Assembly (NCBI RefSeq): GCF_003334785.1 | Contig: NZ_QOWV01000002.1 | Direction: 5' to 3' (one strand) | DNA: 64,000 nucleotides | Origin: Escherichia coli | Lineage (GTDB): Bacteria > Pseudomonadota > Gammaproteobacteria > Enterobacterales > Enterobacteriaceae | Part shown: piece by piece, positions 54,360-64,000 of the stretch | Position numbering within the stretch: position 1 is the stretch's first letter | Layout: the number at the start of each line of letters is the position of its first letter | Position numbers and translations under genes: made by a program | Notes under the pieces: model-generated | The model's input: only the letters and a program-made list of their open reading frames with translations | The model's database searches: none | What the model was told of the DNA's origin: nothing

Positions 54360-54695
54360 ATGGATAAAGAACGCATCATTCAGGAATTTGTGCCCGGCAA
54401 ACAGGTCACACTGGCGCATCTCATCGCGCATCCCGGTGAGGAACTGGCGAAGAAAATCGGCGTTCCGGATGCGGGCGCAATTGGCATTATGACGCTAACT
54501 CCCGGCGAAACGGCGATGATCGCCGGTGATTTAGCGCTGAAAGCCGCTGATGTGCATATCGGTTTTCTCGACCGATTCAGCGGTGCATTGGTGATTTATG
54601 GCTCGGTGGGCGCAGTAGAAGAAGCGTTATCACAAACCGTCAGCGGTTTAGGTCGCTTATTAAATTATACGCTTTGTGAAATGACCAAAAGTTAA
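54360..54695 (+). CDS. eutS: Ethanolamine microcompartment shell protein EutS (permuted BMC domain)
   Basis: 111 aa from [32 protein letters not shown]; the ORF track is extended by 24 codons. Confidence 0.9.
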
Positions 54696-54707
54696 TACGA
54701 GGCATTC

Positions 54708-55187
54708 ATGAAACGAATTGCGTTTGTGGGTAGCGTCGGGGCAGGAAAAACAACGTTATTTAATGCGTTGCAGGGGAATTATACCCTCGCCAGAAAAACA
54801 CAGGCCGTGGAATTTAATGATAAGGGCGATATTGATACGCCGGGTGAATATTTTAACCATCCCCGCTGGTATCACGCCTTAATTACCACGCTACAGGATG
54901 TAGACATGCTGATCTATGTCCATGGCGCAAATGACCCGGAAAGTCGGTTGCCTGCCGGGTTGCTGGATATTGGCGTCAGCAAACGGCAAATCGCCGTCAT
55001 CAGTAAAACGGACATGCCAGATGCTGACGTCGCCGCAACGCGAAAGTTATTGCTTGAGACGGGCTTCGAAGAGCCGATTTTCGAGCTAAACAGCCACGAC
55101 CCGCAAAGCGTGCAGCAACTGGTGGATTATCTGGCATCTCTCACCAAACAGGAGGAAGCAGGTGAAAAAACTCATCACAGCGAATGA
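54708..55187 (+). CDS. eutP: Ethanolamine utilisation P-loop NTPase EutP
   Basis: 159 aa; Walker A (GSVGAGKTTLFNAL). Confidence 0.9.
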   Translation: MKRIAFVGSVGAGKTTLFNALQGNYTLARKTQAVEFNDKGDIDTPGEYFNHPRWYHALITTLQDVDMLIYVHGANDPESRLPAGLLDIGVSKRQIAVISKTDMPDADVAATRKLLLETGFEEPIFELNSHDPQSVQQLVDYLASLTKQEEAGEKTHHSE

Positions 55188-55863
55188 TATTCGTGAAGTA
55201 CACGCGCGCGGCGAACAGGCAATGTCCGTGGTTCTGCGCGCCAGCATTATTACCCCGGAAGCCCGTGAAGTGGCGGATCTACTGGGTTTTACCATCACCG
55301 AATGTGATGAATCGATCCCGGTAACGGCGTCCGTGCCCGCCAGCGTGCCAGCCGACAAAACCGAAAGCCAGCGCATCCGCGAAACCATCATTGCCCAGCT
55401 GCCGGAAGGCCAGTTTACCGAAAGCCTGGTCGCACAGCTGATGGAAAAAGTGATGAAGGAAAAACAGTCGCTGGAGCAGGGCGCAATGCAGCCGAGCTTC
55501 AAATCGGTGACCGGCAAAGGCGGCATCAAAGTGATTGATGGCAGTAGCGTCAAGTTTGGTCGTTTCGACGGCGCAGAGCCGCATTGCGTGGGCTTGACTG
55601 ATCTTGTGACCGGAGACGACGGCAGCAGCATGGCCGCCGGTTTTATGCAGTGGGAGAACGCATTCTTCCCGTGGACCCTGAACTACGACGAAATCGACAT
55701 GGTGCTGGAAGGGGAGCTGCATGTTCGCCACGAAGGCCAAACCATGATCGCCAAAGCAGGCGACGTGATGTTTATCCCGAAAGGCTCCAGCATCGAATTT
55801 GGTACGACATCCAGCGTGAAATTCCTGTATGTCGCCTGGCCGGCTAACTGGCAATCCCTATGA
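55162..55863 (+). CDS. eutQ: Ethanolamine utilisation cupin-fold protein EutQ
   Basis: 233 aa from MKKLITANDIREVH; C-terminal cupin barrel; overlaps eutP by 26 nt. Confidence 0.88.
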   Translation: MKKLITANDIREVHARGEQAMSVVLRASIITPEAREVADLLGFTITECDESIPVTASVPASVPADKTESQRIRETIIAQLPEGQFTESLVAQLMEKVMKEKQSLEQGAMQPSFKSVTGKGGIKVIDGSSVKFGRFDGAEPHCVGLTDLVTGDDGSSMAAGFMQWENAFFPWTLNYDEIDMVLEGELHVRHEGQTMIAKAGDVMFIPKGSSIEFGTTSSVKFLYVAWPANWQSL

Positions 55864-61841: not shown

Positions 61842-62030
61842 ATGCCGGATGCGACGCTTGCCGCATCTTATCCAGCCTACGGGATTGCACATGTAGGGCG
61901 GATAAGGCGTTCACGCCGCATCCGCCAGTGGCGCGGTGCAATTGCCGGATGCGACGCTTGCCGCGTCTTATCCAGCCTACGGGATTGCACATGTAGGGCG
62001 GATAAGGCGTTTACGCCGCATCCGCCAATA
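61842..62030. repeat. Tandem BIME (two ~85 bp units, each a pair of REP palindromes) between eutG and eutH
   Basis: Unit ATGCCGGATGCGACGCTTGCCGCATCTTATCCAGCCTACGGGATTGCACATGTAGGGCGGATAAGGCGTTCACGCCGCATCCGCC repeated twice with 2-3 substitutions. Confidence 0.85.
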
Positions 62031-62057
62031 AATAACAACTAACAGGGAGTAAAGGCG

Positions 62058-63284
62058 ATGGGAATTAACGAAATCATCATGTACATCATGATGTTCTTTA
62101 TGCTGATAGCTGCCGTAGACAGGATCCTGTCGCAGTTCGGCGGTTCTGCTCGTTTCCTCGGTAAGTTCGGTAAAAGTATCGAAGGATCAGGCGGTCAGTT
62201 CGAAGAAGGCTTTATGGCAATGGGCGCACTGGGCCTGGCGATGGTCGGTATGACCGCGCTGGCACCGGTACTGGCTCACGTTCTCGGGCCGGTAATTATT
62301 CCGGTTTACGAAATGCTCGGCGCTAACCCATCGATGTTCGCCGGAACACTGCTGGCGTGCGATATGGGCGGCTTCTTCCTCGCCAAAGAGCTGGCGGGCG
62401 GCGACGTAGCCGCGTGGCTATACTCTGGGTTAATTCTCGGGTCGATGATGGGGCCAACGATTGTGTTTTCCATTCCGGTGGCGCTCGGCATTATCGAACC
62501 TTCTGACCGTCGTTATCTGGCGCTCGGCGTGCTGGCGGGCATTGTGACCATTCCGATTGGTTGTATCGCTGGTGGTCTGGTTGCTATGTACTCCGGTGTG
62601 CAGATCAACGGCCAGCCGGTGGAATTCACTTTCGCCCTGATCCTGATGAACATGATCCCGGTGATCATTGTTGCGATTCTGGTGGCGCTGGGGCTGAAAT
62701 TCATCCCGGAAAAAATGATCAACGGCTTCCAGATCTTCGCCAAATTCCTCGTTGCATTGATCACCCTCGGTCTTGCCGCTGCGGTAGTGAAATTCCTGCT
62801 TGGCTGGGAACTGATCCCCGGTCTGGATCCTATCTTTATGGCCCCTGGCGATAAACCCGGTGAGGTGATGCGCGCCATTGAAGTTATCGGTTCTATCTCC
62901 TGCGTTCTGTTAGGGGCGTATCCGATGGTGCTGCTGCTGACTCGCTGGTTTGAAAAACCGCTGATGAGCGTCGGTAAAGTACTGAATATGAACAACATCG
63001 CGGCAGCCGGCATGGTGGCAACGCTTGCCAACAACATCCCGATGTTCGGCATGATGAAGCAGATGGATACCCGCGGCAAAGTCATCAACTGCGCCTTCGC
63101 CGTTTCCGCTGCTTTCGCCCTGGGCGACCACTTAGGCTTCGCCGCTGCCAACATGAACGCCATGATCTTCCCGATGATTGTCGGCAAGTTGATCGGCGGC
63201 GTAACGGCGATTGGCGTGGCGATGATGCTGGTGCCAAAAGAAGACGCGACCGCGACTAAAACCGAAGCGGAGGCACAATCGTGA
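62058..63284 (+). CDS. eutH: Ethanolamine permease EutH
   Basis: 408 aa polytopic membrane protein; GGAG RBS upstream. Confidence 0.9.
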   Translation: MGINEIIMYIMMFFMLIAAVDRILSQFGGSARFLGKFGKSIEGSGGQFEEGFMAMGALGLAMVGMTALAPVLAHVLGPVIIPVYEMLGANPSMFAGTLLACDMGGFFLAKELAGGDVAAWLYSGLILGSMMGPTIVFSIPVALGIIEPSDRRYLALGVLAGIVTIPIGCIAGGLVAMYSGVQINGQPVEFTFALILMNMIPVIIVAILVALGLKFIPEKMINGFQIFAKFLVALITLGLAAAVVKFLLGWELIPGLDPIFMAPGDKPGEVMRAIEVIGSISCVLLGAYPMVLLLTRWFEKPLMSVGKVLNMNNIAAAGMVATLANNIPMFGMMKQMDTRGKVINCAFAVSAAFALGDHLGFAAANMNAMIFPMIVGKLIGGVTAIGVAMMLVPKEDATATKTEAEAQS

Positions 63285-64000
63285 ACACTCGCCAGCTATT
63301 GAGCGTCGGTATCGATATCGGCACCACCACCACCCAGGTGATTTTCTCCCGGCTGGAGCTGGTTAACCGTGCGGCGGTGTCGCAGGTGCCGCGCTACGAA
63401 TTCATTAAACGCGAAATTAGCTGGCAAAGTCCGGTGTTCTTTACCCCTGTCGATAAACAGGGCGGTTTAAAAGAAGCGGAACTGAAAACCTTAATACTCG
63501 AGCAATATCATGCTGCGGGTATTGAGCCGGAAAGCGTTGATTCTGGTGCCATCATCATCACCGGTGAAAGCGCGAAAACCCGCAATGCTCGCCCGGCGGT
63601 GATGGCGCTCTCTCAGTCGCTGGGCGATTTTGTCGTTGCCAGCGCCGGGCCGCACCTCGAATCCGTGATCGCCGGTCACGGAGCCGGGGCACAAACCCTT
63701 TCTGAACAACGGCTGTGTCGGGTACTGAATATCGACATCGGCGGTGGCACCGCGAACTACGCCCTGTTCGATGCCGGAAAAATCAGCGGCACTGCCTGCC
63801 TCAACGTCGGTGGTCGCCTGCTGGAAACCGACAGCCACGGGCGCGTGGTTTACGCTCATAAACCGGGGCAGATGATTGTGGATGAGTGCTTCGGTGCAGG
63901 CACCGACGCCCGTTCGCTGACCGGCGCGCAGCTGGTGCAGGTGACCCGGCGGATGGCAGAACTGATTGTCGAAGTGATTGACGGAACGCTCTCACCGCTC
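63281..64000 (+). CDS. eutA: Ethanolamine ammonia-lyase reactivase EutA, 5' ~240 codons; gene runs off the window end
   Basis: GTG start overlapping the eutH stop (GTGA) gives MNTRQLLSVGIDIGTTTTQVIFSRLEL; the frame is open to the window end; ASKHA-type ATPase motifs (IDIGTTTT, IDIGGGTAN). Confidence 0.85.
   Translation, partial: MNTRQLLSVGIDIGTTTTQVIFSRLELVNRAAVSQVPRYEFIKREISWQSPVFFTPVDKQGGLKEAELKTLILEQYHAAGIEPESVDSGAIIITGESAKTRNARPAVMALSQSLGDFVVASAGPHLESVIAGHGAGAQTLSEQRLCRVLNIDIGGGTANYALFDAGKISGTACLNVGGRLLETDSHGRVVYAHKPGQMIVDECFGAGTDARSLTGAQLVQVTRRMAELIVEVIDGTLSPL

Follow-up and report, generated by a model that had tools for sequence, protein, structure and literature searches.

Genes of the eut locus

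Positions 54360 to 64000 of the window, which is the 64,000-nucleotide stretch of Escherichia coli contig NZ_QOWV01000002.1 analysed here in full, hold the genes of the ethanolamine utilisation (eut) microcompartment operon listed in Table 1. The genes follow the canonical order S-P-Q-T-D-M-N-E-J-G-H-A on one strand and adjoin maeB, and the same order is found in other Enterobacteriaceae. Coordinates were obtained from a six-frame list of open reading frames (ORFs), the RefSeq annotation of E. coli JKHS016 and a direct inspection of the start codons, stop codons and junctions. In that annotation the ORFs are named eutS, eutP, eutQ, eutT, pta (= eutD), eutM, eutN, eutE, eutJ, eutG, eutH and eutA.

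Each of the 11 complete gene products scored above the curated cut-off of its NCBIfam model, in a match spanning the whole profile. Nine of them matched eut-specific models, and EutD and EutE matched the subfamily models for phosphotransacetylase (NF007233) and aldehyde dehydrogenase (NF011927), respectively. The shell proteins of the bacterial microcompartment (BMC) were found above cut-off and at full length in both the BMC-H class (EutM, NF012018, and EutS, NF012012) and the BMC-P class (EutN, NF011992), and every member of the acetaldehyde-processing and cofactor-recycling set EutE, EutD and EutG scored above its own cut-off. A direct check of the sequence from eutS to eutA (54360-64000) revealed no internal stop codon. 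Every complete eut gene in the window is thus intact, and so is eutA up to the window end.

Table 1. Positions of the eut genes and associated features in the window, with the evidence for each.
Feature	Position	Strand	Description	Evidence
eutS	54360-54695	+	microcompartment shell protein, 111 aa	NCBIfam NF012012, 247 bits vs cut-off 123, profile 1-111/111
eutP	54708-55187	+	P-loop protein annotated acetate kinase, 159 aa	NF012011, 350 vs 258 bits, full length
eutQ	55162-55863	+	cupin-type acetate kinase, 233 aa, GTG start	NF012001, 501 vs 193 bits, profile 1-233/233
eutT	55860-56663	+	corrinoid adenosyltransferase, 267 aa	NF011595, 571 vs 226 bits, full length
eutD	56660-57676	+	phosphotransacetylase, 338 aa; RefSeq name pta, K-12 name eutD	NF007233, 411 vs 310 bits
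eutM	57715-58008	+	major hexameric shell protein, 97 aa	NF012018, 213 vs 133 bits, profile 1-97/97
eutN	58115-58402	+	pentameric vertex shell protein, 95 aa	NF011992, 210 vs 118 bits, full length
eutE	58414-59817	+	CoA-acylating acetaldehyde dehydrogenase, 467 aa	NF011927, 738 vs 403 bits
eutJ	59828-60664	+	DnaK/actin-fold chaperone-like protein, 278 aa	NF011660, 402 vs 182 bits
eutG	60654-61841	+	iron-type alcohol dehydrogenase, 395 aa	NF011998, 888 vs 556 bits, profile 1-395/395
eutH	62058-63284	+	ethanolamine permease/facilitator, 408 aa	NF011665, 874 vs 574 bits, full length
eutA	63281 to past 64000	+	ethanolamine ammonia-lyase reactivase, GTG start, 240/467 codons in the window	NF007991, residues 1-239 = profile 1-239/467
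maeB-eutS intergenic region	54068..54359 (292 nt)	+	hairpin just 3' of maeB stop (54085-54110, GCTTACCCTGAA/TTCAGGGTAAGC); AT-rich stretch	
eutM-eutN spacer, two-part structured RNA	58009..58114 (106 nt)	+	hairpin 1 58016-58041; hairpin 2 compound stem, roughly 58044-58084	
tandem palindrome array (BIME-like) in the eutG-eutH spacer	61843..62027	.	repetitive extragenic palindromes	Tandem Repeats Finder: period 100, 1.9 copies, 97% matches

The start of eutG is placed at the ATG at 60654, which the full-profile match favours over a longer ORF with a GTG start from 60627, and AGGAGG is present 5' of the GTG start of eutQ. An in-frame ATG overlapping the eutD stop codon (ATGA) would extend the N-terminus of EutM by 14 residues (57673-57714); this upstream start is probably unused, the start at 57715 having the better ribosome-binding site and a profile match from position 1.

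The earlier note on this DNA, made from the sequence alone, had named the genes from eutS to eutA in this order and on one strand, and the profile searches, the RefSeq annotation and the junction check bear it out for every gene. It was also right that the operon is incomplete here, since the end of the window falls inside the twelfth gene, eutA, after 240 codons. Its placing of eutBC, eutLK and eutR past the end agrees with JKHS016, in which they come directly after eutA, and with K-12, in which they come after a prophage. In comparison with the 17-gene eut operon of E. coli and Salmonella enterica (EUT1-type, eutSPQTDMNEJGHABCLKR) the genes, order, strand, overlaps and the maeB neighbour are alike, and there is no substantial difference other than that the window is without the last five and a half genes. 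The stretch almost certainly represents the two-thirds of the canonical enterobacterial eut operon nearest to the promoter, located beside maeB where the operon normally lies in the chromosome, and there is no evidence contradicting the identification of the operon.

Comparison with other E. coli genomes

The window corresponds to the E. coli chromosome from yfgH to eutA. In a megablast search of positions 54000-64000 against 5426 complete E. coli genomes, all 5426 matched and 5375 covered at least 80% of the query. One genome, that of JKHS016, was identical over all 10,001 bases, and this identity of 100% extends over the last 22 kb of the window (42000-64000). K-12 MG1655 is 99.97% identical to positions 50165-64000, with four mismatches in 13.8 kb. 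Two of these are non-synonymous, namely EutP M124I (I in the window, M in K-12) and EutQ A13V (V in the window, A in K-12), and the window is therefore not K-12.

A decaying copy, that is a pseudogenised and non-functional eut locus resulting from lesions inside the window, was considered as well. Loss of parts of the region does occur in the species, as 51 of the 5426 genomes cover less than 80% of positions 54000-64000 and 18 are without the eutM-eutN stretch, yet no lesion was found in the window itself. The full-length matches of all the complete genes to their profiles and the absence of internal stops refute pseudogenisation inside the window, and the sequence is identical in many wild isolates, leaving decay of this copy with a negligible probability.

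The eutA/eutB junction

The earlier note mentioned a cryptic prophage after eutA in K-12 and held that the intactness of the operon cannot be judged from the window alone. Both statements stand, since the MG1655 annotation shows the prophage CPZ-55 between eutA and eutB, and the junction lies past position 64000, 685 nt from the window end. CPZ-55 (6.8 kb, intZ to yffS) occupies 2558691-2565480 in MG1655, where it abuts the eutA stop and ends 11 nt from the eutB start. It is thus located between the eutA stop and the ribosome-binding site of eutB, flanked by the 8-bp duplication CTTCCTGA, a target duplication that has been published (PMC6379469), and the eutA/eutB site has been termed a prophage insertion hot spot (PMC6652756). 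In JKHS016 the full eutA (locus 21282-22685) is followed by a gap of 11 nt, eutB, and then eutC, eutL, eutK, eutR and hemF, the junction reading ...CTTCCTGAGGGAACGACTTATGAAA. The uninterrupted form consists of the eutA stop, then GGGAACGACTT, and then ATGAAACTAAAG of eutB.

A census of the 5426 genomes with eutA/eutB junction probes found the uninterrupted junction in 4964 (91.5%) and the K-12-type eutA/yffS junction in 244. An end of a related but different element was found beside eutA in an estimated 220 genomes or so, a figure drawn from the 232 records in the 90-99% identity bands and the census remainder of ~218 genomes. About 8.5% of complete E. coli genomes, or ~1 in 12, consequently carry an element at this junction. 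Among the 20 genomes closest to the window, all 20 showed a single-piece match from eutS into eutB, and in a spread sample of K-12-type junction matches all three full-junction rows were K-12 or laboratory strains.

In an interrupted locus the eutA stop (CTTCCTGA) would give way to foreign sequence, and eutB would lie farther downstream, past an intZ gene on the opposite strand. The displacement is ~7-13 kb in the three interrupted loci that were read. The island in comparison locus L004 (strain JBEHAAB-19-0176, 16301-29217) is phage-like, measures 12.9 kb and carries an IntZ-family integrase gene, tape-measure and terminase-small genes and a gene for a YafO-type toxin. That of strain DXMF6-3R (L005, 16302-27928) measures 11.6 kb and carries an IntZ-family integrase gene, gadC-like and murI-like genes and copies of IS1/IS3.

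Judging from these comparisons, the operon beyond the window is highly likely to be uninterrupted in the source strain, an expectation based on the non-K-12 character of the strain and on its closest sequenced relatives, which all have eutA directly before eutB. Three observations count against it. DXMF6-3R, an interrupted strain, has EutP, EutT, EutD, EutE, EutJ and EutG proteins identical to those of JKHS016, so that even a close relative may carry an insertion. JKHS016 itself differs from the window at four sites in positions 1-41999, and no genome of the collection matches the entire window without a difference. Finally, 8.5% is the base rate at which elements occupy the junction in complete E. 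coli genomes.

The alternative is an insertion between eutA and eutB in the source strain, either of CPZ-55 or of a different element with an IntZ integrase. The eut genes seen in the window would then form the upstream half of a locus that is split and functionally impaired, as in MG1655 and BW25113. Such insertions take place at a real hot spot, both with the K-12-type prophage and with other elements, and the 11.6-kb island just described resides in a strain that shares six Eut proteins with JKHS016. An insertion is nevertheless unlikely in view of the four differences from MG1655, the restriction of the sampled full K-12-type junctions to K-12 and laboratory strains, the uninterrupted junction in each of the 20 closest genomes and the low base rate itself. 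The K-12 locus split by CPZ-55 resembles the window in a near-identical eutS-eutA segment, but the alleles of the window are non-K-12 and the prophage is missing from its closest relatives.

In K-12 AG100 (NZ_LN832404.1, 2561256-2561956) the uninterrupted-junction probe matches in two pieces, spanning 701 bp as against 611, and two eutA features are annotated, which suggests loss of the prophage with a ~90-bp duplication at the junction. The prophage junction is likewise missing from several further genomes of the K-12 lineage or of laboratory strains (e.g. ER1821R, PG20180170 O16:H48 and TUM strains).

The state of the junction has been connected with phenotype, since growth of E. coli K-12 on ethanolamine needs an uninterrupted operon (PMC11334477, PMC7617246). 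The prophage-bearing strain BW25113 does not grow on ethanolamine and forms no compartments, and growth returns once the prophage has been removed scarlessly (PMC11334477, PMC7617246).

Gene junctions and packing

Five junctions of the operon overlap, eutP/Q by 26 nt, eutQ/T and eutT/D as ATGA, eutJ/G by 11 nt and eutH/A as GTGA, and the direct junction check reproduced each of them exactly as first noted. The remaining junctions are gaps of 12, 38, 106, 11, 10 and 216 nt. Three of the overlaps, eutQ/T, eutT/D and eutJ/G, are shared with Citrobacter, Klebsiella, Pseudocitrobacter, Pluralibacter, Intestinirhabdus and Entomohabitans and, being kept across genera, are no accident of this strain.

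The conservation of these three overlaps over several genera could be taken as a sign that the overlaps at the eut locus have a special part in regulation and go beyond generic operon compaction. Against this speaks the hyf operon in the same window, in which a like pattern of overlaps of 1 to 11 nt and gaps of at most 16 nt is seen (successive junctions of -8, -4, 9, -11, 4, 11, 16, 10 and -1 nt), making a special role of the eut junctions very improbable. Bacterial operons most often join their genes by short overlaps, those of 4 nt among them. The tight packing of eut is what compaction produces in operons generally, probably with translational coupling, and is no special feature.

The hyf (hydrogenase 4) operon is complete, with hyfR and focB, on the minus strand at 15383-28964 and is packed as tightly as eut. 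Among the eut loci of other genera, that of Citrobacter koseri NCTC10786 (L017) gave fragmented, low-identity matches to eutS, eutT, eutE, eutJ and eutH, which could reflect decay of the locus or errors in the assembly. In Yokenella regensburgei (L023) a match to eutT was absent from the eutQ-eutD interval searched.

A structured spacer between eutM and eutN

The 106-nt gap between eutM and eutN holds two hairpins, 3' of which a conserved TTACCTGAA motif precedes the ribosome-binding site of eutN. The spacer folds with a minimum free energy of -43.5 kcal/mol (z = -2.7). The folding z-score was dropped as a sign of function, as many same-strand spacers of the window score from -2.7 to -5.4. The spacer is single-copy in E. 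coli, with one place per genome. Identity of the eutM-eutN region does not fall below 95% in any of the 5408 genomes possessing it, which makes covariation within E. coli uninformative.

Across the Enterobacteriaceae, a stable stem-loop was present in all 20 eutM-eutN spacers recovered, and it is of three kinds. The two-hairpin structure occurs in Escherichia, three Citrobacter isolates and Entomohabitans, repetitive extragenic palindrome (REP) elements in other Citrobacter, Klebsiella, Pluralibacter, Pseudocitrobacter and Salmonella diarizonae, and unrelated hairpins in Yokenella and Intestinirhabdus. This distribution suggests that a structure has been kept at the eutM-eutN boundary while the sequence forming it was replaced among genera. 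When the non-REP spacers were aligned (six sequences from three independent lineages, with the structure derived from the E. coli fold and a hairpin 1 that hardly varies), 96% of the cells at the 24 proposed pairs were paired, and six pairs had changed on both sides as compared with 0-1 in slid controls. The two-hairpin RNA, supported by these compensatory changes across genera, may be new. No matching family was found in Rfam, and no description of the structure was found in the papers searched, a set that did not include the original operon paper, Kofoid et al. 1999.

The spacer might be a selected RNA element that impedes 3' exonucleases, terminates transcription in part, or does both, its placement between the genes of EutM and EutN helping to set shell stoichiometry; this role is put forward tentatively and is possible rather than probable. 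Among the shell proteins, published proteomics ranks EutM highest and EutN lowest in abundance (PMC11334477), and a stabiliser or attenuator at this boundary would, in our view, fit these abundances. Binding of CsrA to the eutM-eutN hairpin was also considered on account of its GGA motifs, and was dropped because the one CsrA site so far published lies in the eutS leader.

The palindrome array between eutG and eutH

The 216-nt spacer between eutG and eutH contains a tandem array of REP palindromes resembling a bacterial interspersed mosaic element (BIME). The array begins 1-2 nt past the eutG stop, and each of its 100-bp units holds two inverted REP palindromes. As in the REP/BIME family, the palindromes are imperfect and of ~35 nt, alternate in orientation and occur at many chromosomal sites, and the spacer matched the REP-derived Rfam family naRNA4 with 71.8 bits against a gathering score of 59.5. 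The REP content of this spacer accounts for the median of seven matching places per genome that the 10-kb query gave in the 5426 genomes.

The number of units varies among Escherichia genomes, with one in L004, two here, about three in L024 and about 4.5 in L022, and REP was absent from this spacer in the Pluralibacter and Entomohabitans loci compared. Ribosome stalling at REPs this near to a stop codon has been reported to reduce the expression of the upstream gene. Other operons have internal REP/BIME elements too (e.g. the malE-malF REP), and these are matched here by the tandem palindromes of eutG-eutH and by the REPs in the eutM-eutN spacer of several genera, whereas the eutM-eutN spacer of Escherichia is a single-copy, non-REP structure of two hairpins.

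Upstream region and regulation

In Salmonella and enterohaemorrhagic E. coli (EHEC), EutR together with ethanolamine and adenosylcobalamin activates a promoter upstream of eutS, and by analogy with that work the main, EutR-dependent promoter of eut and the leader of eutS are expected to lie in the AT-rich stretch between maeB and eutS (PMC10433801, PMC5821096). A simple scan for consensus promoters and terminators found no sigma-70 consensus promoter in the maeB-eutS region, as would be expected of an activator-dependent promoter. Overall it gave fewer promoter-like sites than in shuffled sequence and an about equal number of terminator-like sites, and flagged the hairpin after eutM. The binding of CsrA to the eutS leader has been described in Salmonella (PMC10433801, PMC5821096), and by homology the start of the Salmonella eutS RNA used for CsrA binding would correspond to about position 54313 of the window. 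Downstream, the last gene, eutR, is transcribed mainly by read-through, and a weak second promoter before it provides basal expression (PMC10433801, PMC5821096).

An Rfam scan of 53500-64000 for riboswitches and known regulatory RNAs at permissive E-values returned only naRNA4 in the eutG-eutH spacer and one chance-level match. A B12 riboswitch was thus not found in this interval, as expected for an enterobacterial eut operon regulated by EutR. In JBEHAAB-19-0176 (L004, 3724-5710) two glycosyltransferase-family genes lie on the opposite strand between maeB and eutS and lengthen the region upstream of the eut promoter.

The likely working of the locus, with the roles of its products, can be drawn from published Salmonella and E. 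coli studies. The AraC-type regulator EutR with ethanolamine and adenosylcobalamin would drive the promoter ahead of eutS to give a single long transcript, and the overlapping or near-abutting stop/start junctions would allow translational coupling along it. The shell would be built from EutS, EutM and EutN, inside which EutE, EutD and EutG would process acetaldehyde and recycle cofactors. EutH would take up ethanolamine, EutT and EutA would serve cofactor supply and enzyme repair, and EutP, EutQ and EutJ would be accessory proteins. The signature enzyme EutBC, the shell proteins EutL and EutK, and EutR itself would be encoded past the window end.

Significance

The catabolism of ethanolamine in a protein-shelled compartment provides a source of nitrogen and carbon for E. 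coli of the gut and urinary tract, and is studied in pathogenesis and in compartment engineering. The operon is ordinary and previously described, the operon, the insertion hot spot, the 8-bp duplication and the insertion phenotype all having been published, and this copy adds nothing new to the known picture. The window derives from a wild-type-like, non-K-12 strain whose eut locus is very probably functional and uninterrupted. The structured eutM-eutN spacer is possibly the only new item and, if functional, would be of modest interest for tuning the ratios of shell proteins. For E. coli in general, with ~1 in 12 complete genomes bearing a mobile element at eutA/eutB, the intactness of the eut operon should be checked strain by strain.

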